Made by a program: the position numbers and the translations under genes. Positions 3,662 to 53,799 of a DNA stretch of 64,000 nucleotides are shown one piece after another. Source of the stretch: a virus; IMG/VR virus record IMGVR_UViG_3300043409_001561; one strand, given 5' to 3'. How positions within the stretch are numbered: position 1 is the first letter of the stretch; each line of letters begins with the position of its first letter. The notes under the pieces are model-generated. The model made no database searches, was not told the DNA's origin, and worked only from the letters and a program-made list of their open reading frames with translations.

Positions 3662-4048
3662 TTAAACTGCCAAAATTTCTTTTAATTTATTTACACGATT
3701 AGTGTAAGTTTTTTGATAAAACTTATCAAACGACTCTTTAATATAGACAAAACTAACAGGTCCACCCATATATTTATACGCAGTCCCCCAATTCATTCCG
3801 TCATCTACCATATCAATCACACCTATAGAAACAGAATTTATACTAGTGTTACCAATAATAACATTGATACCAGTTTCAGGTGAATACAAACCTCTTTTAC
3901 AATCTTCACCTTTAGGACTTTCTACAAACCCTCTTTTTCGAAATTCTGACATTACATAATCGAACATATCTGTACCCATTTCCTTTTTAAGGGAATTAAG
4001 TTCACTTTTCAGTTCTTTGATTTTAGTTACTTTCTCTAATACTTTCAT
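3662..4048 (-). CDS. hypothetical protein
   Basis: ORF track. Confidence 0.4.
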   Translation of the reverse strand: MKVLEKVTKIKELKSELNSLKKEMGTDMFDYVMSEFRKRGFVESPKGEDCKRGLYSPETGINVIIGNTSINSVSIGVIDMVDDGMNWGTAYKYMGGPVSFVYIKESFDKFYQKTYTNRVNKLKEILAV

Positions 4049-4129: not shown

Positions 4130-5965
4130 TTGTATATTATTATTTATATGAGAAAATTAAACAGAGCAGAAATAAGATTTCTTAAATATTTAGATGAACA
4201 TTTAGACGATGTGTTTGATAAAACGTCAGCACTTAAAGTGTTAAGAGATGATTTAGGTTTAGATTCTAAAGAGGCGACACACTTATATAGTGTTTGGTAC
4301 TTCACCAAAGGAGATACAGATTATAGTGAGGTAGAATACGATGATGATAATAGTTTGGTATCCTTTATAAGGAAAATGAGTTCATTTAATAGTAATTCTG
4401 ATAGAGAATCGTATATGGATATGATATATGAAGATGAACGTGAGAAATTAGAGAGAATTTATGGTGAATGGATTAATATTCGTTGTGGTGAATGGAGAAG
4501 TACTGTACCATGTATTGTATGGCATAGTGATCATATCACATTAGAATTAGATTATGATGATTGGAAAGAACATTTTTCGGGATTACATGAACAAAGTTTC
4601 TATATCTATGATAAAGCGTATAGTGATTACGGTAGTGATTCTGACGAAATGAGTGAAGATGAGTTTGACTACGCATATAGTAATGATGAAACTATAGAAC
4701 TTTTTGGAGAATTAGCGTTAATCGTAGGTAAAAATACTTGGCCAGGTAAAGATAATGGGGGGATAACGGAAAAAGATATATCTAATTTTTTAGAAAGTAC
4801 TTTACCATCAGATGTATATGAATCGATAGTTAGTGATTATTTAACTGAACTAGGATATGTAGTTACAAATGCTAGAAATAAATCAACAAGAGAAACTTAC
4901 TCGAATGAAATAAAATATGACGTTAACAAATCCAGTTGTAGTACAAGTAATAATTGTATCGAAATACCATATGATGATTTAATCGAAATAATTAATGAAA
5001 ATGGTTTAGTAAATTTATCTGAATTAATGGACGCTGAAATACAACCAGACGTTGATTTAGAAAATGGTTATTACGATTCTTGGGTAGATGATGATGGTGT
5101 TGATGAAGTAATAACAGAATTTAACAGAACATTAAGAAGATCTATAGATTCAATTATAGAAGATGGTGGAATAGATATTAATGAATTAATAGAAAAAAGA
5201 GAGGGTTTTTATAAAATTATTAAAGATTTAGGTTTTGTTTTAGTATCACCAACAACAAATAAGGGTGATTGGTATAAAAGTAAGGATGATAAAATACATT
5301 TTTATATGAACGATGTAGATTTTGGGGAAGATAAGATTAAATTTACATATGAAGGTAAATCACATTTAGTTCCGATAGAAGATTTAAGTGATTGGTCACA
5401 AGGTAGTGTATTAGATTTAAATGAAAGTGTTAAATACAATAAGATTAAGTTACTGAAAGAGAATAAAGATGTAATAAATAAAATATCGATATTCGATTTT
5501 GATGGTACACTTATGGAGACACCTCATCCAGAGAAGGGTAAGTTATTTTGGGAAGAAACTACAGGTATGAAATATCCTCATATTGGGTGGTGGAGTAAAC
5601 CTGAATCTTTAGATACTAAAGTATTTAACATTAGGACTATAACCCCAACTGTTAAAGCGTATAAGAAAGAAATGGGGGATCCTAATACATTAGTCATTAT
5701 GTTAACAGGTAGGTTACCACAACAACACGATCAAGTGGAAGGTTTATTGTCCTCAAACGGTATTTACTTTGACGAGTACCATTATAAAGGTAACGGTGAT
5801 ACTTTAGGTAGTAAATTAAATACTATTAGAACATTATTAAGTAAATACCCAACAGTTGAGTCCATTGAGATGTGGGAGGATAGAGAACCTCACGCAATTG
5901 AGTTTGAGAAATGGGGTGAAGAAAATGGTGTAACTATAAAAGTTAATTTAGTTTTAAAGAAGTAA
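4130..5965 (+). CDS. large acidic protein with a C-terminal HAD-superfamily phosphatase domain (polynucleotide 3'-phosphatase-like)
   Basis: C-terminal FDFDGTL (DxDGT, HAD motif I) followed by a region of HAD-like length. The N-terminal roughly 430 aa is D/E-rich. Confidence 0.5.
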   Translation: MYIIIYMRKLNRAEIRFLKYLDEHLDDVFDKTSALKVLRDDLGLDSKEATHLYSVWYFTKGDTDYSEVEYDDDNSLVSFIRKMSSFNSNSDRESYMDMIYEDEREKLERIYGEWINIRCGEWRSTVPCIVWHSDHITLELDYDDWKEHFSGLHEQSFYIYDKAYSDYGSDSDEMSEDEFDYAYSNDETIELFGELALIVGKNTWPGKDNGGITEKDISNFLESTLPSDVYESIVSDYLTELGYVVTNARNKSTRETYSNEIKYDVNKSSCSTSNNCIEIPYDDLIEIINENGLVNLSELMDAEIQPDVDLENGYYDSWVDDDGVDEVITEFNRTLRRSIDSIIEDGGIDINELIEKREGFYKIIKDLGFVLVSPTTNKGDWYKSKDDKIHFYMNDVDFGEDKIKFTYEGKSHLVPIEDLSDWSQGSVLDLNESVKYNKIKLLKENKDVINKISIFDFDGTLMETPHPEKGKLFWEETTGMKYPHIGWWSKPESLDTKVFNIRTITPTVKAYKKEMGDPNTLVIMLTGRLPQQHDQVEGLLSSNGIYFDEYHYKGNGDTLGSKLNTIRTLLSKYPTVESIEMWEDREPHAIEFEKWGEENGVTIKVNLVLKK

Positions 5966-27529: not shown

Positions 27530-28267
27530 TTATAATTCGTTAGTAGGTTTCAACCACATTCCTTTTGAGAATACTAAATCCAAAAATCCAGGTATGTAAG
27601 ATTCTTCAACGGTATGAAGTAATCTTAAAGATAGTGGAGTATTATGTTTCATCATCTTAAAGATTTCTTCTCTCATTCTTTCAACTGAAACAGTTGTTTT
27701 TAATTTCTCTAAGATTTCAGGTTGAGCCATCGCGTCCCATATTTTTAAACTAATCGTAAATCCTTTTGTTACTGAGAATCTTAAAGCTCTCAATATTCTC
27801 AACGGATCATCCATCATTGTTATTTCTGGGTTTAATGGAGTTCTCAAAATTCCATCTTCAAGATCCTTGAGTCCACCAAATAAATCAATTAGATTCCCAT
27901 TTTCATCTTCCGCCATCGAATTCAATGTGAAATCTCTTCTAATTAGATCATCTTCTAATGTACCTAATTCTAAAATAGGTTGTCTAGTCCCTTCTTTGTA
28001 ACCGATCTCTTTTCTTGCGAGAACAAAGTCCGCAACTAATCCTTCGTTAACATCACCTTTAGGAAATTTAGCTCTGATAGTGAACATCTCTGGAGTAGAA
28101 AGGAATATAGTAAACTCTTTATGTTCCATCCATTGTTTCATTATTTCGAAACCTTCATCTACTGTTCTATCTATGTTGTCGAGTACAAATGTGAAGTCAA
28201 TATCTTTAGATTCAACACCTAAGATACTATCTCTTACACAACCACCAACTTTATATATCTGAGGCAT
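27530..28267 (-). CDS. cca: CCA-adding tRNA nucleotidyltransferase (minimal head/neck type)
   Basis: VGGCVRDSILG...KDIDF, RRDFTLNSMA and DPLRILRALRF are the class-II CCA/poly(A) polymerase head-domain motifs. Confidence 0.75.
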   Translation of the reverse strand: MPQIYKVGGCVRDSILGVESKDIDFTFVLDNIDRTVDEGFEIMKQWMEHKEFTIFLSTPEMFTIRAKFPKGDVNEGLVADFVLARKEIGYKEGTRQPILELGTLEDDLIRRDFTLNSMAEDENGNLIDLFGGLKDLEDGILRTPLNPEITMMDDPLRILRALRFSVTKGFTISLKIWDAMAQPEILEKLKTTVSVERMREEIFKMMKHNTPLSLRLLHTVEESYIPGFLDLVFSKGMWLKPTNEL

Positions 28268-28506: not shown

Positions 28507-28750
28507 TTGTTTTATTTTATCAAAGATATAAATAATATTTCAATCTGCCAAATTTTTTGGTTATTTATATTGGTTATAAATAAGGTGATAGTGATGGAGT
28601 ACCCGTCTCGCTCCAATCTTAAGTGCTTAATCGTAGTTTTACGAGGCCTCGGCACTGTCCTTTTCAGGGGGTGATGAATTCCTGATCCACTCTGGATTGT
28701 CGACATCCGTTGAGTGGGGAAAACCACTATCAGTATTTTAATTGTTTATG

Positions 28751-28824
28751 TGGTCCTTGTTGGAATCGAACCAACCACCTACGGTTTATGAGACCGCCGC
28801 TCTAACCGAATGAGCTAAAGGACC
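28751..28824 (-). tRNA. tRNA-Met/Ile2 (anticodon CAT)
   Basis: Manual fold: acceptor GGTCCTT/AAGGACC, D-arm GCTC..GAGC, anticodon loop CTCATAA, T-loop TTCGATT. Confidence 0.7.
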
Positions 28825-40718: not shown

Positions 40719-41519
40719 TTAAATTGGTAATTTTACTTTACTTAACATTTGATTTGAAACATGAGTATATATTTCAGTAGTTTTAACATTACTGTGACCC
40801 GCAATTTTTTGGATTAAACGAAGATCCGTTCCTGATTCTAAAAGATTTGTAAAACAAGAATGTCTTAATTGGTGGATGTGATATTGTTCACCTAAATATT
40901 TTTTAACAATCTTATTACAACTATTTGAACTATATTGTAAAGAATTTTGTCCGTTAAACAAATATTCTTTTGGTTTATACTGGATGAAATAATTTCTTAA
41001 TAACTCTAAAACAGTTTGAGAAAGTGGGACAATTCTATCCTTTCTACCTTTGGCGTTTTTAATATGTATTAACATCCTTTTTGAATCAATATCACCTATT
41101 TTAAGGTTAACTACTTCTGAAACTCTTAACCCAACCGAATATGTTATTGTAAGTATTGTTTTATGTTTTATATTTTCAATTTTTGATAATTGTTCTTTTA
41201 TAAATTCCCCATCAATAACAACTGGTAATTTCTTTTCGGATTTTGGTCTTTTAAAACTCACTTTATCGTATTTCTTGTTTAAACCAAATTTATATAAAAA
41301 CCTAATGGCGTTTATGACTTGGTTTTGTTGTGATACCGATGTGAAGTTATATTTATCCAAATAAGATTGGAAATCGTTAGAATTACAATGCACTATTTGT
41401 TTACCACCTAAACTATACAAGAAAGGTTTTATATGAGATAGATAGTTATCTTTAGTTCTAGGTGAATAGTTTAGGTATATAAACTTTTCTTCACAAATCT
41501 TTATAATTTTATTATTCAA
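40719..41519 (-). CDS. tyrosine site-specific recombinase/integrase (XerC/D-like)
   Basis: GLRVSEVVNLKIGDID, HQLRHSCFT and GHSNVKTTEIYTHV give the R..HxxR..Y catalytic signature. Confidence 0.75.
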   Translation of the reverse strand: MNNKIIKICEEKFIYLNYSPRTKDNYLSHIKPFLYSLGGKQIVHCNSNDFQSYLDKYNFTSVSQQNQVINAIRFLYKFGLNKKYDKVSFKRPKSEKKLPVVIDGEFIKEQLSKIENIKHKTILTITYSVGLRVSEVVNLKIGDIDSKRMLIHIKNAKGRKDRIVPLSQTVLELLRNYFIQYKPKEYLFNGQNSLQYSSNSCNKIVKKYLGEQYHIHQLRHSCFTNLLESGTDLRLIQKIAGHSNVKTTEIYTHVSNQMLSKVKLPI

Positions 41520-44304: not shown

Positions 44305-44370
44305 AATAAACGTTTTATAACATCAAATATAGATATTAATTTCTATATAAACAAATTTTTTTAAAAATAG

Positions 44371-44445
44371 TACCAAAGGTGAGATTCGAACTCACAAACC
44401 TTTGTTTCTAAGACAAAGAGGTATACCGATTCCCGTCACTTTGGC
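44371..44445 (-). tRNA. tRNA (anticodon TAG; Leu-like but with a short variable arm)
   Basis: Acceptor GCCAAAG/CTTTGGT, anticodon stem TTTGT/ACAAA with loop CTTAGAA, T-loop TTCGAAT. The D-arm is irregular. Confidence 0.5.
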
Positions 44446-44451
44446 ATTTTG

Positions 44452-44524
44452 AGCAGGTAGAGAGAATCGAACTCTCGTCCTCTGATTGGAAGTCAGACAT
44501 AATAAGCCACTATACGATACCTGC
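44452..44524 (-). tRNA. tRNA-Gly (anticodon TCC)
   Basis: Acceptor GCAGGTA/TACCTGC, anticodon stem TCTGA/TCAGA with loop CTTCCAA, T-loop TTCGATT. Confidence 0.65.
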
Positions 44525-44695
44525 ATTAAGATTATTTTCTCTTAATCTTTTTTTTTAATTTAATAAATTTTATTAATCTTATTAAATTAATAGAATTTTT
44601 TCTAGACTCGATAATATTAAAATTATCTTTCGATGATATACCAGAACCCGTCATTACCTCTCTCATACTTATTTATTTTACTTTTTATTATTTGT

Positions 44696-44768
44696 GGATA
44701 CATCTCGGCATCGAACCGAGGACTCCTGAGTGCAAATCAGGTGTGATAGCCAGCTTCACCAATGACCC
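44696..44768 (-). tRNA. tRNA-Ala-like (anticodon TGC)
   Basis: D-arm GTGA/TCAC, anticodon stem CCTGA/TCAGG with loop TTTGCAC, T-loop TTCGATG. The acceptor has two mismatches and lacks G3-U70. Confidence 0.5.
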
Positions 44769-44774
44769 AAATGG

Positions 44775-44849
44775 TTGCGGGACTGGGACTCGAACCCAGA
44801 ACTTCGGCTTATGAGACCGACGAGATAACCAATTTCTACATATCCCGCA
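44775..44849 (-). tRNA. tRNA-Met (anticodon CAT), initiator-like; CCA appears genomically encoded
   Basis: Anticodon arm TCGGT-CTCATAA-GCCGA resembles tRNA-fMet. The 3' end reads TCCCGCA-A-CCA. Confidence 0.65.
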
Positions 44850-44881
44850 ATTTTTAATTATACCGAATTCGGTATAATTAG

Positions 44882-44956
44882 TGATCCCGGTGAGGTTCGA
44901 ACTCACGACCCCTCCATTAAAAGTGGAGTGCTCTAAACCAACTGAGCTACGAGATC
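44882..44956 (-). tRNA. tRNA-Lys (anticodon TTT)
   Basis: Clean cloverleaf: D-arm GCTC-AGTTGGTTA-GAGC, anticodon loop CTTTTAA. Confidence 0.8.
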
Positions 44957-45017
44957 TTCTGTTTGTCATACTTGTCACTTTCCATAATCTGACATTTTAT
45001 TTATTTGTTAATAATTG

Positions 45018-45090
45018 AGGTTCTGCCCAGGTTCGAACTGGAGACACTTGATTACAAATCAAGAGTTTTACCGACTAAACTACAAAACCT
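45018..45090 (-). tRNA. tRNA-Thr (anticodon TGT)
   Basis: Anticodon stem CTTGA/TCAAG with loop TTTGTAA, T-loop TTCGAAC. Confidence 0.75.
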
Positions 45091-45095
45091 AATTG

Positions 45096-45169
45096 TATCG
45101 TGTACGGGATTCGAACCCGTGATTTTCACCTTGAAAGGGTGACGACTTAAACCACTCGTCTAACACGAC
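45096..45169 (-). tRNA. tRNA-Glu (anticodon TTC), second copy
   Basis: Anticodon stem TCACC/GGTGA with loop CTTTCAA, T-loop TTCGAAT. Confidence 0.7.
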
Positions 45170-45177
45170 ATTTATTG

Positions 45178-45250
45178 TAGTCTCTGTAGGGTTCGAACCT
45201 ACGACAACTTGCATGTAAAACAAGTGCTCTACCAACTGAGCTAAGAGACT
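45178..45250 (-). tRNA. tRNA-Val (anticodon TAC)
   Basis: Acceptor AGTCTCT/AGAGACT, D-arm GCTC-AGTTGGTA-GAGC, anticodon loop TTTACAT. Confidence 0.8.
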
Positions 45251-45255
45251 GTGGC

Positions 45256-45327
45256 GGTCCATGACGGTTACGATCCGTCTACTCTACCGTGACAGGGTAG
45301 GATGATAAGCCATTTCACCAATAGACC
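45256..45327 (-). tRNA. tRNA-Asp (anticodon GTC), second copy with an unusual T-loop ATCGTAA
   Basis: Acceptor GGTCTAT/ATGGACC, anticodon stem CTACC/GGTAG with loop CTGTCAC. Confidence 0.7.
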
Positions 45328-45334
45328 ATTTAAA

Positions 45335-45440
45335 TGATAATCAGGATTGAGTTGTATACGTGCTCTACCAACTGAGCTACCGTCGCCCCGAAGGACAACG
45401 GACAGGATTCGAACCTGCGACACCGAGCTTAAAAGGCTAA
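45335..45440 (-). other. rearranged tRNA-derived element (T-arm-like segment placed 5' of an acceptor/D-arm half)
   Basis: The minus strand reads ...GCAGGTTCGAATCCTGTCC...GGCGACGGTAGCTCAGTTGGTAGAGC... followed by no T-arm. The order is permuted relative to a normal tRNA. Confidence 0.3.
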
Positions 45441-45480
45441 TGTAATTGTTGCTGAAACAATCCTTTTATTATCATTATAG

Positions 45481-45564
45481 AGGAGAGATGAGGTGTCGAT
45501 CCCCATACCTTTCAGTACCAACTGTTTTCAAGACAGTGTTGCGGGCCGCCGCAATTATCTCTCC
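45481..45564 (-). tRNA. tRNA-Ser (anticodon TGA), type II with an atypical D-arm
   Basis: Acceptor GGAGAGA/TCTCTCC, anticodon stem ACTGT/ACAGT with loop CTTGAAA, long variable region, T-loop ATCGACA. Confidence 0.55.
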
Positions 45565-45602
45565 GTTTAATTTCCAATACGTCAAAGAACTAAAAACAAA
45601 AA

Positions 45603-45632
45603 ACCCTAAGTTCTCACTTAGGGTTTCCATTA
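45603..45632 (-). terminator. rho-independent terminator-like hairpin (CCCTAAGTGAGAACTTAGGG followed by T6 on the minus strand)
   Basis: Perfect 7-bp stem plus T-run between the two tRNA sub-clusters. Confidence 0.45.
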
Positions 45633-45855
45633 TATAGTATTTAAATTTTTAAATGTTATCTATTACAATATACCCTAAGATCTGGTTGTAGCGAATCCGC
45701 TCCATCCATTTTCGTCTTAACGACCTCTAATCTGTATGTCATTGTATTTTTCATTGAAATTTTTACCTTTTTAATTAAATATACATAAAGTTACGAAAGT
45801 TTCTTCAAAAAGTCAAATAATTTTTAATTTTTTTTTATAATTTATTTTATTTAAG

Positions 45856-45929
45856 AGGTCAGAGAGGGATTCGAACCCCCGAATAATGGATTTGCAGTCC
45901 ACCCCTTTAAACCACTCAGGCATCTGACC
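45856..45929 (-). tRNA. tRNA-Cys (anticodon GCA)
   Basis: Acceptor GGTCAGA/TCTGACC, anticodon stem GTGGA/TCCAT with loop CTGCAAA, T-loop TTCGAAT. Confidence 0.7.
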
Positions 45930-45998
45930 ATCAGTTCACTAAACTAGATTTTGCACAATAAACTTTATCTGTTTATTGTAGCAAAAATAAGTTTATTG

Positions 45999-46071
45999 TA
46001 CACTCTGAGAGATTCGAACTCCCATCTTATAGTCCGTAGCCATATGTTCTAATCCGTTGAACTAAGAGTGT
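45999..46071 (-). tRNA. tRNA-Arg (anticodon ACG)
   Basis: Acceptor ACACTCT/AGAGTGT, D-arm GTTC/GAAC, anticodon loop CTACGGA. Confidence 0.75.
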
Positions 46072-46076
46072 ATTGG

Positions 46077-46148
46077 TAGGGATGGGTGGAGTCGAACCAC
46101 CGAGACAACTGTATAAGAGTTGCATGTTCACCGTTACATCACATCCCC
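46077..46148 (-). tRNA. tRNA-Ile (anticodon TAT), followed by an encoded CCA
   Basis: Acceptor GGGGATG/CATCCCT, D-arm ATGT/ACAT, anticodon stem CAACT/AGTTG with loop CTTATAC. Confidence 0.65.
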
Positions 46149-46155
46149 ATTTTTG

Positions 46156-46243
46156 CGGAAAGAATAGGATTCGAACCTATGGTACCCTTACGAGTACAAC
46201 ACCTTAGCAGGGTGCCTCAATAAACCAACTCTGACATCTTTCC
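46156..46243 (-). tRNA. tRNA-Ser (anticodon GCT), type II
   Basis: Acceptor GGAAAGA/TCTTTCC, anticodon stem GCACC/GGTGT with loop CTGCTAA, long variable arm, T-loop TTCGAAT. Confidence 0.7.
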
Positions 46244-46247
46244 ATTA

Positions 46248-46321
46248 GGTGTATGACGGGAATTGAACCCGTGACCTTTTGATTCACAATCAAACACTCT
46301 AACCAACTGAGCTACATACAC
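46248..46321 (-). tRNA. tRNA-His (anticodon GTG)
   Basis: Acceptor GTGTATG/CATACAC, anticodon stem TTTGA/TCAAA with loop TTGTGAA, T-loop TTCAATT. Confidence 0.8.
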
Positions 46322-46323
46322 AG

Positions 46324-46394
46324 TTGTCTCCCAAGGATTCGAACCTCGATTCAGTGGTCCAAAACCACTTGTCCTGCCTTTAGACGAGGAGACA
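46324..46394 (-). tRNA. tRNA-Gln (anticodon TTG)
   Basis: U1-A72 acceptor TGTCTCC/GGAGACA, anticodon stem AGTGG/CCACT with loop TTTTGGA. Confidence 0.8.
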
Positions 46395-46457
46395 ATTTAA
46401 AATTATTCACTACCCAAATATCGAATTTTTTACTACTTTTGGGAAGTTAATAATTAG

Positions 46458-46532
46458 TCTGGGTAGCGAGACTCGAACTCACATTATGTCCACATCCCAA
46501 ATGTGGCGGCTTACCAATTAGCCAATACCCAG
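46458..46532 (-). tRNA. tRNA-Pro (anticodon TGG)
   Basis: C1-G72 acceptor CTGGGTA/TACCCAG, anticodon stem CCACA/TGTGG with loop TTTGGGA. Confidence 0.8.
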
Positions 46533-46535
46533 TTA

Positions 46536-46653
46536 AAAGTGTGGTGAGATTTGAACTCACACGAAAGGTTACATATCTAATCCCCTTCTTTTCTCTACAA
46601 ACTAGTATAAGTAGTTTCAGAACATTAAATCATCACCTAACCCTTTCACACTT
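46536..46653 (-). other. tRNA-like element with an insertion of about 45 nt closed by an AAAGGGTTA/TAACCTTT stem
   Basis: Acceptor AAGTGTG/CACACTT and T-arm GTGAG-TTCAAAT-CTCAC. The central region is replaced by a long structured insert that shares its closing-stem sequence with 30934..31059. Confidence 0.4.
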
Positions 46654-46654
46654 G

Positions 46655-46727
46655 TGGACAGAGAGGGAATCGAACCCCCGACACCTAGATCTTCAATCTA
46701 GTGCTCTACCAACTGAGCTACCTGTCC
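46655..46727 (-). tRNA. tRNA-Phe (anticodon GAA)
   Basis: Acceptor GGACAGG/TCTGTCC, anticodon stem CTAGA/TCTAG with loop TTGAAGA, T-loop TTCGATT. Confidence 0.8.
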
Positions 46728-46795
46728 TTCTTCGGGGAGGACTTGGCTGAGGTATCCTAACGGTTCTACCCTCAACACTCGCCTCCCGTCTTATG

Positions 46796-46866
46796 CACAC
46801 CTGAAAGGATTCGAACCTCTAACAACGGTTTTGGAAACCGTCATGATACCATTTCACTACAGATGT
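46796..46866 (-). tRNA. tRNA-Trp (anticodon CCA)
   Basis: Acceptor ACATCTG/CAGGTGT (one G-U pair), anticodon stem ACGGT/ACCGT with loop TTCCAAA. Confidence 0.75.
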
Positions 46867-46942
46867 ATTAAAATGTTCAGGAAGACTTTTTTACATCCAA
46901 ATTGTATTTTTTTATTTGCTGAAATCTTCCTTTTAACATTTG

Positions 46943-47023
46943 TGGGACCTGGTGGACTCGAACCACTCCCTTTAGGACGAAATTTACAGTTTCGCTGCCG
47001 TATCCAAACGACTTTCAGTTCCC
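46943..47023 (-). tRNA. tRNA-Tyr (anticodon GTA), long variable region
   Basis: Anticodon stem CGAAA/TTTCG with loop CTGTAAA, T-loop TTCGAGT. The acceptor has one mismatch. Confidence 0.6.
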
Positions 47024-47091
47024 ATTTAAACTAACACCATGACTCCTTTCGAACTTTAGAGGCTCGTATCATTCAACTCTGTGTTAGTTTG

Positions 47092-47164
47092 CGACTCAGG
47101 CAGGACTCGAACCTGCGACCGATTGATTAACAGTCAATTGCTCTACCAACTGAGCTACTGAGTC
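47092..47164 (-). tRNA. tRNA-Asn (anticodon GTT)
   Basis: Acceptor GACTCAG/CTGAGTC, D-arm GCTC/GAGC, anticodon stem ATTGA/TCAAT with loop CTGTTAA. Confidence 0.8.
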
Positions 47165-47203
47165 ATTTACTTTCATAACAATATGTCAAAGAACTTTTGT
47201 TCT

Positions 47204-47280
47204 GTCGGTATGGTAGGGATCGAACCTACGAATCTTCTCGATATCAGCGAGATGCCTTAAACCAACTTGGCCACATACCG
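47204..47280 (-). tRNA. tRNA-Ile (anticodon GAT)
   Basis: Acceptor CGGTATG/CATACCG, anticodon stem TCTCG/CGAGA with loop CTGATAT, T-loop TTCGATC. Confidence 0.75.
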
Positions 47281-51723: not shown

Positions 51724-51847
51724 ATTATTACTATAAAAAATAAAACCCCCCTAATTATCTTAAGGGGGTTTTTAAAGGGCCGATAGGATCACTATCAACT
51801 TCCACCACTTTGTTTTTAAGGTACAAAGAACCTAGCGTGGAGATGGA

Positions 51848-52235
51848 GGGAGTCGAACCCTCGTCCAATCAAATTGCCATTAAAAATTCATTCACAAGCT
51901 TAGTTCATTTTTCTTAATGAACAAAATATTTGGTTTTATTTATAACATGGTTACCAACAACCCTGTTTCGATAATTGTTTAGAGAGTTTTACCGTCAACT
52001 CTATTTTTTACACCTTTCTGTTTCTAGGTAAGTGTGACCCACCGATTAAACTAATTCCATTAATTCAATCTCTTCAACCACCGCTGAGCGAGTGATAGAA
52101 GTTGGGATACTCATCATATCCTCTGTGTTGTATGCGTTTGCATTTATATTTTGATAGGTGTTTAAGGGTTTCCATCTAACCCTGCTTGCATCATTTCAAA
52201 CTCAACCTTTGACTGTCAAATCCAAAACCATCCCC
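51848..52235 (-). ncRNA. ssrA: candidate tmRNA (ssrA)
   Basis: The minus strand begins GGGGATGGTTTTGGATTTGACAG (compare E. coli GGGGCTGATTCTGGATTCGACGG). It ends GGACGAGGGTTCGACTCCCTCCATCTCCA, a tRNA-like T-arm plus acceptor whose 3' CATCTCC pairs with the 5' GGAGATG. The tag reading frame is not confidently identified. Confidence 0.55.
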
Positions 52236-52384
52236 AGTTTTCAAAGAACTTTTCTTTATTTTATCTTTAGTGTATAATATTCTATCCATCCATTCTCTAT
52301 CATCATAACGATCTTTTTCTCTATATTTTTCGTCTTCGTAGATTTTTTTAGATGCTCCCATATTTAACACTTATTATATATATA

Positions 52385-52392
52385 CAAATATA
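52385..52392 (-). promoter_or_regulatory. TAnnTTTG (-7) element upstream of a small unlisted minus ORF and of the tmRNA
   Basis: The minus strand reads TATATTTG. Confidence 0.3.
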
Positions 52393-52455
52393 TACACTTT
52401 TTTTCATAAAAACAAATATTTTTTAATTTTTTTTTATATTTATAAATAAAATATT

Positions 52456-52950
52456 ATGAAAAGAATTATAAGATTAACTGAAAGTGAATTAATTAATGTA
52501 GTTAAAAGAGTAATTAGAGAATCAAAAAGAGGTTACTTGATGGAGCAAGTTGACCCTAAACTAGAGTCTTCATTAAAATTAATTTTCACTCAAGTGGCAA
52601 CTATTTATAATAACGCAATTAAGTCTGATCCTAAATTAAAGCAGACACAACTTACAGTCGCAATTATACCTAAAGAAGAATATAATGTATATAGATGGAT
52701 GTATGGTAATACAGAACTACCTGAATGGGGTAATTTAACAGTTACAACTAAAACCATTTTGAATCAGGGTCCAAGTGAGGTAGGTAAATTAATTTTATCA
52801 ACATTTGATCCAACAACTAATAAAAAATTACCTGAAGTATTTAAATCTTTAGGTCAGGGGGATTTAAAAAGAGCGGTTAGTAGTTGGGTTAAGAATTTTC
52901 AGACACCTTCAACCACTTCACCTACATCAAAAACAGGTTCTAAAAATTAA
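52456..52950 (+). CDS. member of the N-terminal tag family (MKRIIRLTESELINVVKRVIRE...)
   Basis: Shares the (L/I)TE-S-x-L N-terminal motif. Ser/Thr-rich C-terminus. Confidence 0.45.
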   Translation: MKRIIRLTESELINVVKRVIRESKRGYLMEQVDPKLESSLKLIFTQVATIYNNAIKSDPKLKQTQLTVAIIPKEEYNVYRWMYGNTELPEWGNLTVTTKTILNQGPSEVGKLILSTFDPTTNKKLPEVFKSLGQGDLKRAVSSWVKNFQTPSTTSPTSKTGSKN

Positions 52951-52975
52951 TATAACATAGATTCTATTTTAGTTA

Positions 52976-53395
52976 TTAGGAACTTTTTATGAAGTTAAAA
53001 TTTGTAGATTTATAAATTTTATAAAAATCGTCATTAACGTAAAACCAACTTAGACTTTCGTTTTGGATGTCAGTATTTATAACAAACCCTACACCTTCAC
53101 TTGGGTTTATTAGTTGGATAACAAATAATGAATTATTATTTTCAAAAGTAAATTCAACTTCATCTGTTAAAATACCATTAACATAGAATTTGAGTTCTCT
53201 ATTTTGGATATCGAAAATGTATTCACAATCAACTGTAATAATCTCTGGTGATCCTGAAATAGTGTTAATGGCACCAACTACACCAGAAGTATCATATTCA
53301 TAATGTTCAATAACTTCATAAACCTTAACCCTGATAACTTGTGAGTTAATAAAGTTTACAACGAATAGGAATAATATAAAAATTAGAGTTTTCAT
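52976..53395 (-). CDS. secreted hypothetical protein (start at the internal Met, MKTLIFILFLFVVNFINSQ)
   Basis: A signal peptide sits at the internal Met. The longer ORF-track start at 53473 is probably spurious. TATATTTG lies about 25 nt upstream of the 53395 start. Confidence 0.4.
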   Translation of the reverse strand: MKTLIFILFLFVVNFINSQVIRVKVYEVIEHYEYDTSGVVGAINTISGSPEIITVDCEYIFDIQNRELKFYVNGILTDEVEFTFENNNSLFVIQLINPSEGVGFVINTDIQNESLSWFYVNDDFYKIYKSTNFNFIKSS

Positions 53396-53466
53396 AGTTA
53401 TTTTTTTTATTATCATTCTACAAATATATATAATTTTTTTCAGAAAAAACAAATATTTATAATGGA

Positions 53467-53799
53467 ATGTCATTAAAATTTTTAAATATATTAAACGAAG
53501 AAAAAGAAAGTTGTAAATATCAGTTACGTGATATAGGTGGTGACGCGTATTATAAAAAATGTAAAGGTGATTCTAAATGGATTTTTACTGATGAGATGGA
53601 CTTCTTAAAGAACTCTAAAAAATCTAATATAGAAAAATGGGAGAAACCTAAAGAAAAAAAATCCAAAATTAGGCAATTAGATGTCCCACAAAAAAAAGGG
53701 AATAAATTAGAAGATTTAAAAATCTATTATACTAATCTATCCCCAGATAATTATGAAATCAAAATAGAAGGTGGTAAAATTATAATTCTTCCATCTTAA
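53467..53799 (+). CDS. hypothetical Lys-rich protein
   Basis: ORF track. Confidence 0.35.
   Translation: MSLKFLNILNEEKESCKYQLRDIGGDAYYKKCKGDSKWIFTDEMDFLKNSKKSNIEKWEKPKEKKSKIRQLDVPQKKGNKLEDLKIYYTNLSPDNYEIKIEGGKIIILPS

Follow-up and report, generated by a model that had tools for sequence, protein, structure and literature searches.

Transfer-messenger RNA (tmRNA) genes are uncommon in phages, as had been stated in a preliminary description of the present locus: 402 of 18,146 phage genomes carry one (PMC9004378). They have been listed along with SmpB in huge phages (PMC7162821) and catalogued in cluster C mycobacteriophages and Bacillus phage G (PMC4131195). Most bacteria encode a tmRNA tag of ~10 aa (PMC11915505); in Bacteroides the native tag is GETNYALAA (9 aa), which drives strong degradation of green fluorescent protein (bioRxiv 10.1101/2025.03.18.644028). 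Phage tmRNAs are routinely annotated and their tags rarely examined; the literature, of which coverage was incomplete, yielded no paper that tests phage tmRNA function or treats phage tag endings, and the supplement of the phage genome survey contains no tag sequences (PMC9004378). The locus described here is a one-piece tmRNA gene on the minus strand of a 64,000-nt stretch of viral DNA, IMG/VR record IMGVR_UViG_3300043409_001561 (the window); it encodes a 31-residue tag which ends in Glu-Leu-Val (ELV) rather than in the canonical hydrophobic-Ala-Ala.

The gene is considered, with good confidence, to be a functional phage-encoded tmRNA that would rescue ribosomes during infection with the help of host SmpB. 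It bears on the question of whether ribosome rescue, targeted proteolysis or the two together serve the phage, as selection in a lineage of large aquatic phages maintains a tag of about threefold normal length, and one sub-clade has dropped the universal Ala-Ala with the RNA intact. Phage tmRNAs are already known as a kind; new are the tag family and a small gene which overlaps the tmRNA. Of specialist interest are the long tag family itself, the seemingly maintained ELV ending and its parallel in the mycobacteriophage Bxz1, a hairpin within the tag open reading frame (ORF), and the overlapping gene.

Identity and anatomy of the tmRNA

The locus is a tmRNA; all of the sequence and structure elements are present, and the family to which it belongs evolves by compensatory changes. 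ARAGORN calls a single standard, non-permuted tmRNA at 51837-52235 on the minus strand, with the coding part at gene positions 95-190. The Rfam tmRNA model RF00023 matches over model positions 1-374 of 374 (span 51835-52235, minus strand; E 6e-43) with 112 bits, the gathering score being 47. The two checks that the preliminary description had proposed thus both return a complete tmRNA, and the two-piece (permuted) form is excluded by the standard gene order and by the end-to-end coverage of the one-piece model. Together with covariation in the family and the viral surroundings, these matches bear out the initial identification of a phage-encoded tmRNA on this strand.

Read on the minus strand, the 5' end GGGGATGGTTTTGGATTTGACAG and the 3' end GGACGAGGGTTCGACTCCCTCCATCTCCA are present as first described. 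The span originally given, 51848-52235, is right at its 52235 end; its start at 51848 drops the last 10 nt of the gene, which extends to the discriminator base (tmRNA nucleotide n lies at window position 52236-n). Similarly, the acceptor stem had been given as 5' GGAGATG paired with 3' CATCTCC; the stem and its 3' strand are as described, however the 5' strand reads GGGGATG, and position 3 is therefore a G:U wobble and not part of a perfect complement. This wobble is the G3:U70 pair of alanine identity. The discriminator A is followed by CGC, so that the 3' CCA is not encoded.

The remaining anatomy was laid out by hand from the sequence and compared with the Rfam alignment (Table 1). Pseudoknot 1 (PK1) lies immediately 5' of the resume region, and three further pseudoknots (PK2 to PK4) are predicted downstream of helix 5. 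The layout of the pseudoknot-rich 3' half (51903..52040) is to be read as a prediction, apart from a covarying hairpin and one stem of PK3.

Covariation was scored in five helices, using anchor-extracted ungapped strands of fixed geometry from 30 distinct family members. Standard pairs occupy 97.9% of 900 cells; shuffled data give 84.6%, and sliding the partners gives 35-49%. Changes on both sides are seen in 16 of 30 pairs, a number reached by 0 of 500 shuffles and compared to 2-6 in the slid versions, and the covariation score is 0.391 versus 0.122 in shuffles. Every cell is paired in acceptor stem P1, where three of seven pairs vary at both bases, where pairs 4-6 show compensatory changes, and where the G:U at position 3 is retained in 30/30 members. 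Pairing is likewise 100% in the T-arm stem (four of five pairs changing on both sides) and in P3 of PK1, which occurs in GC, GU, AU, UA and CG variants (three of six). One pair at the end of P2 varies as AU, GC and UA; P4 of PK1 is invariant and hence uninformative on covariation. In the 3'-half hairpin five of six pairs change on both sides, and the PK3 stem CGGUAA/UUAUCG becomes CGUCAA/UUGACG in the related locus L026, a difference of two compensatory pairs. MAFFT alignments were also tried for pair counting and were dropped, as their 5' ends were off by one column.

The long tag and its ELV terminus

Approximately 90 related viral or metagenomic tmRNAs were found. The closest relative, L022, comes from the 253,879-bp IMG/VR contig IMGVR_UViG_3300042868_007959; its tmRNA is 100% identical and its flanks are 96-98% identical. 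In L019 and L026 the tmRNA is ~94% identical and the flanks 80-86%, conservation thus being higher in the tmRNA than around it. Contigs of the window's sub-clade reach 254, 224 and 189 kb. In 37 IMG/VR contigs the 29-nt 3' end occurs unchanged; most of these hold permuted tmRNAs that are alike only at that end. A scan with the PK1 motif recovered 46 viral loci with tags in conserved classes of 24, 23 and 14 aa, all ending in A(V/L/I)AA, while a degenerate pattern of the tag core recovered 15 viral and 62 metagenomic loci. The long-tag lineage comprises 50 unique normal-length tags of 29-36 aa with the core (Y/I/F)-N-x-E-D-(M/I)-M-S-I-P-T-S-I-T. Endings of the type xAA account for 38/50 (LAA 25, VAA 7, IAA 2, MAA 2, FAA 1, TAA 1); the others are ELV (6), LVA (3), ELA (1), EMA (1) and LAD (1).

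Several members of the family depart from the usual gene form. ARAGORN mis-called the tags of at least L073 and L081; in the frame that aligns with the tag of the window, the former reads GNVYNSEDMMSIPTSITRVAEEVELAIAA. Group I introns (Rfam RF00028, ~100 bits) split the tmRNA gene in L078 (328-554, plus strand) and L075 (7609-7837, minus strand); the intron-bearing relatives include one ELV-ending tag, and ARAGORN misses such intron-split genes. As a result of such mis-calls and missed genes, automated surveys under-report the family. The metagenomic locus L133 (OGWP01006089.1) keeps the tag core but reads for ~90 codons without the usual stop, which may reflect a mutated tmRNA or an assembly error. 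A GOLLD RNA (RF02032, 292 bits) lies at L053:5021-5439 on the minus strand, between the tRNA array and the tmRNA of that related viral contig.

The resume codon and tag, which the preliminary description could not identify with confidence, are evident in the alignment: GCA falls on the consensus resume codon of the Rfam model, 31 codons follow, and the stop codon UAA lies in helix 5, where it is expected. GCA is preceded by UAAAU, which places U at -5 and A at -4; the counterparts in the Escherichia coli tmRNA are U85 and A86. In most pairwise comparisons with relatives the ratio of non-synonymous to synonymous differences (pN/pS) of the tag is 0.14-0.55. The tags of the window and of L073, which was recovered via PK1 and thus independently of its tag, have the core EDMMSIPTSITR in common with three synonymous differences. 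In the set recovered with the pattern, P13, T14 and S15 are conserved by construction, which carries no weight; at positions that the pattern left free, the residue is held while codons switch (N5 in 50/50, I16 in 50/50 and never as ATG, T17 in 48/50). The stem of the hairpin inside the ORF behaves differently, as its codons 7, 8, 11 and 12 show no synonymous alternatives though the search pattern permitted them; their wobble positions are invariant or nearly so among the 50 unique tags (GAG 50/50, GAT 50/50, AGT 50/50, ATC 49/50). The invariant wobbles and the residue-keeping codon switches together indicate that the tag core is constrained both as RNA and as peptide, and the frame evolves in a way compatible with purifying selection at the peptide level.

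The tag ends in M-E-L-V, and the canonical hydrophobic-Ala-Ala ending is absent, though the last residue is still hydrophobic. The comparison with the host type of tag that had been proposed at the outset does reveal divergence, with 31 aa ending in ELV versus GETNYALAA of Bacteroides. The nearest tag of the Ala-Ala (AA) type is that of L081, DNVYNSEDMMSIPTSITRLAVVEEAELLLAA, which closes with ...RLAVVEEAELLLAA where the window has ...RSAVVEEIELMELV. ELV occurs in six distinct peptide variants, all in the window's sub-clade and none in other clades of the 50 unique tags; the residues which precede it differ within the sub-clade (IELM, MESI, IEAI, IGLM). Helix 5, whose 3' strand contains the E-L-V codons and the stop, has been rewritten on both strands, from GGCUGAGUUGCU/AGCAGCUUAACC in AA-type members to GAUUGAAUUAAU/AUUAGUUUAAUC in ELV members, with pairing retained by compensatory changes according to ViennaRNA folds of ELV-type and AA-type variants. 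Within the sub-clade the Leu codon changes synonymously from UUA to UUG, and this change is compensated by a non-synonymous one on the opposite strand. The invariance of ELV amid variable neighbours and the compensated synonymous change argue that these residues are held as peptide, and ELV appears to have been maintained rather than decayed; the caveats are that helix 5 pairing itself constrains these bases and that about a quarter of the lineage's tags are non-AA, so that the terminus may simply be under looser constraint in phages.

With the xAA degron replaced by ELV, tagged proteins would probably escape the usual ClpXP-type recognition of the tag end, and their fate is probably altered. 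A stronger form of this idea holds that the tag itself is selected, and that ELV re-targets the products of a functional tmRNA to Lon, FtsH, a PDZ protease or a phage factor, or spares them from ClpXP. This is possible but doubtful. It would account for the constancy of ELV in six variants with changing neighbours, for the compensation across helix 5 and for the conservation of the long core, a 29-nt pattern of which has 0 matches among 185,579 bacterial and archaeal species genomes; the unrelated tmRNA of Bxz1 also carries a long acidic tag ending in LV, and since GETNYALAA is a strong degron in Bacteroides, loss of AA should matter. However, RNA constraint on helix 5 alone could fix the last codons, and with 12/50 unique tags non-AA, among them LVA, ELA, EMA and LAD beside ELV, the terminus looks more relaxed than turned into a new signal. 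Nor does an adaptor or protease gene accompany the tmRNA across the fetched loci; its neighbours are conserved only inside the sub-clade.

It is far less likely that the RNA is a decoy, titrating host SmpB or EF-Tu or occupying stalled ribosomes to shut down host trans-translation. A precedent exists in phage DS6A, whose tmRNA fragment consists only of the tRNA-like domain and inhibits tmRNA in E. coli (PMC4131195, PMC11915505); a decoy would nonetheless have no need of an mRNA-like region, a resume context, an in-frame stop in helix 5 or a conserved peptide, all of which are kept here.

Expression, function and genome context

A candidate promoter of the Bacteroidota type, with TTTG at -33, a 20-nt spacer and TATATTTG at -7, lies upstream of the gene. 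A TAnnTTTG element had initially been placed directly upstream; the sequence at that site, GTTCTTTGA, which ends 6 nt before G1, is not an exact match to it, and the exact TATATTTG is found ~150 nt upstream of the tmRNA. TAnnTTTG is not enriched window-wide (119 versus 104 expected), and the promoter call thus relies on spacing and position only; a scan for sigma-70-type promoters gave matches no more frequent than the shuffled expectation. The motif GTTCTTT(G/A)A, of which GTTCTTTGA is an instance, is found again 6-9 nt before G1 in several clades with otherwise unrelated upstream sequence, other clades having a TATAAT-like box where it would lie. It has 8 copies in the window versus 2.7 expected, and one of these lies 22 nt upstream of a tRNA-Asn gene. 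An intrinsic terminator is predicted ~65 nt past the 3' end of the tmRNA; two terminator-like sites occur in the 1-kb region, versus 0.5 expected from shuffles.

A small conserved ORF shares its last 45 nt with the 5' end of the tmRNA and stops at TGA, tmRNA nucleotides 43-45. The upstream frame, its length (55-60 codons) and the positions of its Met and stop are preserved across six distinct sub-clade variants, although the N-terminal half has diverged. RNase P cleavage at G1 would deprive the mRNA of this ORF of its last 15 codons and its stop and make it a non-stop mRNA; the overlapping gene is a natural candidate for a built-in substrate of trans-translation. Directly upstream of this unit, the region 52422-53406, including the plus-strand ORF 52456-52950, has no counterpart in L022, which is otherwise 96-99% identical, and is either an insertion or a replacement.

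By analogy with known tmRNAs, the -33/-7 promoter (52416-52385) would drive a joint transcript of the small ORF and the gene as far as the terminator, and transcription may also start near G1. RNase P would cut the 5' end, the ~65-nt trailer would be trimmed, and CCA would be added, plausibly by a nucleotidyltransferase-family protein of the phage itself. Host alanyl-tRNA synthetase would then charge the RNA via G3:U70, and host SmpB and EF-Tu would bring it to ribosomes stalled where an mRNA is broken or lacks a stop codon; translation would resume at GCA, append the 31-residue tag and terminate at the UAA in helix 5, allowing the ribosome to be recycled. Tagged proteins may go to another protease or be spared. 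The benefit to the phage would be that ribosomes are kept available during infection, in concert with its 27 tRNAs, the CCA-adding-family enzyme, a polynucleotide kinase (PNK)/HAD RNA-repair-like protein and a TROVE-like protein.

Several points weigh against this account. Each step beyond the existence of the gene and its constraint is taken from known tmRNA biology, and the window covers only 64 kb, whereas the genome measures at least 254 kb, so that a phage SmpB or a dedicated protease may be encoded elsewhere; a phmmer search with the SmpB proteins of E. coli and Bacillus subtilis gave no match among 4,357 ORFs of the window and the fetched viral loci. Evidence for peptide selection is likewise qualified: the window and L078 tags give a pN/pS of 1.88, such values are noisy because the tag ORF is short, and the apparent constraint on the peptide is inflated since part of the conservation is at the RNA level (the hairpin at 52121-52105, and helix 5). 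In addition, AT mutational pressure at 28% G+C could have aided the replacement of GCN alanine codons.

A broader proposal, speculative and rather unlikely, is that large phages have a tmRNA tag class of their own, which is long, acidic and conserved and bears a hairpin in its ORF, with LV in place of AA in at least two unrelated lineages, namely the window's sub-clade of probable Bacteroidota phages and mycobacteriophages like Bxz1, the tagged products diverted or protected, and the product of the overlapping small gene tagged automatically. Its absence from cellular genomes holds for the patterns used. Were it correct, the phage would rescue ribosomes via trans-translation while diverting or protecting the tagged products.

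The surroundings of the gene are viral in content, and its relatives lie on IMG/VR contigs of up to 254 kb. The window has a G+C content of ~28-29% and 27 tRNA genes, all on the same strand as the tmRNA according to ARAGORN and Rfam; related tmRNAs also usually adjoin tRNA arrays on large contigs. A further Rfam tRNA match at 30934-31059 on the minus strand (126 nt, 39 bits) was not called by ARAGORN and may hold an insertion or intron. The majority of ORFs have no known family. Among the others, a T5 A1-like DNA transfer protein has its best relatives in Maribacter, Cellulophaga and Flavobacterium phages (45-46% identity), and HNH, GIY-YIG and NUMOD3 homing-endonuclease ORFs occur along with two DNA methyltransferases. 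CCA is encoded in only ~4/27 of the tRNAs, and ~23/27 and the tmRNA lack it; for this reason the PF01743 protein is the likely supplier. Homologs of this nucleotidyltransferase with 75% identity lie near the related tmRNAs in L085, L160 and L182. A TROVE-like/DUF2828 protein is common in large phages; the PNK-like and TROVE-like proteins, the tRNAs, the CCA-adding-family enzyme and the tmRNA could be viewed together as an RNA-maintenance gene set, and Bxz1 has a similar combination. A complete DnaJ is encoded ~5.7 kb upstream of the tmRNA.

A functionless passenger, either a host ssrA copy acquired by imprecise excision or the attachment-site remnant of an ssrA-integrating phage, is highly improbable. 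A tyrosine recombinase gene does lie ~10 kb from the tmRNA, and ssrA is a common integration site (PMC9004378); however, attachment-site remnants carry just the 3' end of ssrA, whereas this gene is of full length, is conserved over many divergent viral contigs with compensatory evolution, and has a tag core and PK1 that differ from those of every tmRNA in the 185,579 cellular species genomes. Apart from the recombinase, the phage has the look of a large one of the lytic type, and the tag pattern gave no prophage copy in cellular genomes. A looser PK1 signature matched 35 times in the same genomes (chance expectation ~70, by the present estimate), none of the matches being in a tmRNA except L092. 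L092 (JALRIY010000485.1) is a 575-bp contig binned in an Algoriphagus metagenome-assembled genome and carries the 5' half of a family tmRNA whose tag starts GVNNYAL, similar to the short Bacteroidota type; the contig may come from a phage and have been binned wrongly, or it may hint at how the family arose. The tag-core and PK1 patterns recovered no donor lineage or host tmRNA from cellular genomes, and global pairwise identities to other tmRNAs did not discriminate a donor. Among GenBank phages, no tmRNA matched the tmRNA region at the nucleotide level by BLAST, and a megablast search with 20 kb likewise produced nothing useful; the phage thus has no close sequenced relative in that set. That the window is a bacterial chromosome and the tmRNA the cell's own is scarcely credible, as nothing favours it beyond the presence of a tmRNA in every bacterium, and the 27 clustered tRNAs, the T5 A1-like and TROVE-like proteins, the homing endonucleases, the mostly family-less ORFs, the IMG/VR relatives and the lack of a cellular genome match all oppose it.

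A Shine-Dalgarno motif is found at 4/62 gene starts versus a background of 10.7%, and the starts are A-rich at -13 to -9. A-rich starts without Shine-Dalgarno motifs and the TTTG/-7 promoter layout are typical of Bacteroidota, and the host of the phage is probably a member of this phylum. Freshwater Flavobacterium jumbophages of ~200-235 kb have been isolated (bioRxiv 10.64898/2026.04.22.720137), which offers a circumstantial lead to the host and not a match.

Table 1. Features of the tmRNA locus and of the wider window (positions are those of the 64,000-nt window; PK, pseudoknot).
Feature	Position	Strand	Description and basis
One-piece tmRNA gene	51838..52235	minus	398 nt, G1 at 52235 to discriminator A at 51838
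Acceptor stem P1	52235-52229 with 51845-51839	minus	GGGGAUG with CAUCUCC; read from sequence
End of helix P2	52189-52184 with 51899-51894	minus	GCAAGC / GCUUGU
PK1	52183-52153	minus	P3 AGGGUU/AACCCU, P4 GAUGG/CUAUC; hand layout
Resume codon GCA	52141-52139	minus	Rfam alignment
Tag reading frame	52141-52049	minus	31 codons, ANAYNTEDMMSIPTSITRSAVVEEIELMELV; ARAGORN
Hairpin inside tag ORF	52121-52105	minus	GGAUAU-GAUGA-GUAUCC, codons E7 to P13; ViennaRNA, -5.7 kcal/mol
Helix 5	52070-52044	minus	12-bp hairpin GAUUGAAUUAAU-GGA-AUUAGUUUAAUC; ViennaRNA
Stop codon UAA	52048-52046	minus	within 3' strand of helix 5
PK2	52040-52010	minus	hand-predicted
PK3	52003-51969	minus	hand-predicted
PK4	51962-51930	minus	hand-predicted
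3'-half hairpin	51922-51903	minus	GUUCAU-UAAGAAAA-AUGAAC; hand layout, covariation
T-arm of tRNA-like domain	51862-51846	minus	GAGGG-UUCGACU-CCCUC, GUUCGA-type loop; sequence and Rfam alignment
Candidate Bacteroidota-type promoter	52385..52416	minus	TTTG (-33) 52416-52413; TATATTTG (-7) 52392-52385
Small conserved ORF	52191..52361	minus	56 aa from ATG
GTTCTTTGA motif	52249-52241	minus	
Predicted intrinsic terminator	51772-51742	minus	13-bp stem and T run
Further GTTCTTT(G/A)A copies	47186-47194, 45582-45590, 53605-53613, 60674-60682	minus	
Further GTTCTTT(G/A)A copies	4012-4020, 31964-31972, 37202-37210	plus	
tRNA array	44370..47280	minus	21 genes; ARAGORN, Rfam
Second tRNA cluster	28750-30467	minus	6 genes; ARAGORN, Rfam
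tRNA nucleotidyltransferase (CCA-adding enzyme) family ORF	27530..28267	minus	Pfam PF01743, E 1e-20 (PolyA_pol head domain)
HAD/polynucleotide-kinase-like 'Swiss Army Knife' RNA-repair protein	4130-5965	plus	
TROVE-like RNA-binding protein	60686-62101	minus	DUF2828/DUF7788
Tyrosine recombinase	40719-41519	minus	Phage_integrase and SAM-like N-terminal domain
DnaJ	57892-58887	minus	J domain, zinc-finger, C-terminal domain

Comparison with described tmRNA systems

The standard one-piece bacterial tmRNA, as encoded by ssrA of E. coli or Bacteroides, is alike in the G3:U70 pair, the T-arm, the discriminator A, the lack of an anticodon arm and the long helix P2, and also in PK1 placed before GCA, the U at -5 and A at -4, the stop in helix 5 and the three downstream pseudoknots. 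It differs in that the window's tmRNA is virus-encoded, has a 31-aa tag ending in ELV instead of xAA with a conserved hairpin in its ORF, lacks an encoded CCA, and has a protein gene overlapping its first 45 nt. Other clades of the same viral family have homologous 5' and 3' domains, PK1 and long conserved tags, and mostly lie beside tRNA arrays; their tags end in canonical A(V/L/I/M)AA, in contrast to ELV and the rewritten helix 5 strands of the window's sub-clade.

The two-piece tmRNAs of Melnitz and the pelagimyophages (PMC9004378) are likewise virus-encoded and have been proposed to serve the upkeep of hijacked translation machinery; unlike that of the window, they are circularly permuted, their tags are short and canonical, and a glutamine riboswitch is linked to them, whereas Rfam found no riboswitch in the window. 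The overlap of smpB and ssrA in Carsonella (PMC4131195) resembles the arrangement here, as an upstream coding frame enters the tmRNA gene and processing would leave a non-stop mRNA. There the frame is smpB and the overlap a by-product of genome decay; here it is an uncharacterised 56-aa phage ORF, with the overlap conserved across the sub-clade.

The cluster C mycobacteriophage Bxz1 offers a parallel in several features, having a phage-encoded tmRNA beside a large tRNA array, a TROVE-like protein, and a tag called by ARAGORN as ATDTDATVTDAEIEAFFAEEAAALV, which is 25 aa long, acidic and LV-ending. It differs in its Actinomycetota host and in carrying an RF-1-domain protein, which is not seen in the window. 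As the tags of Bxz1 and the window are not alignable, the LV ending that they share would be convergent.

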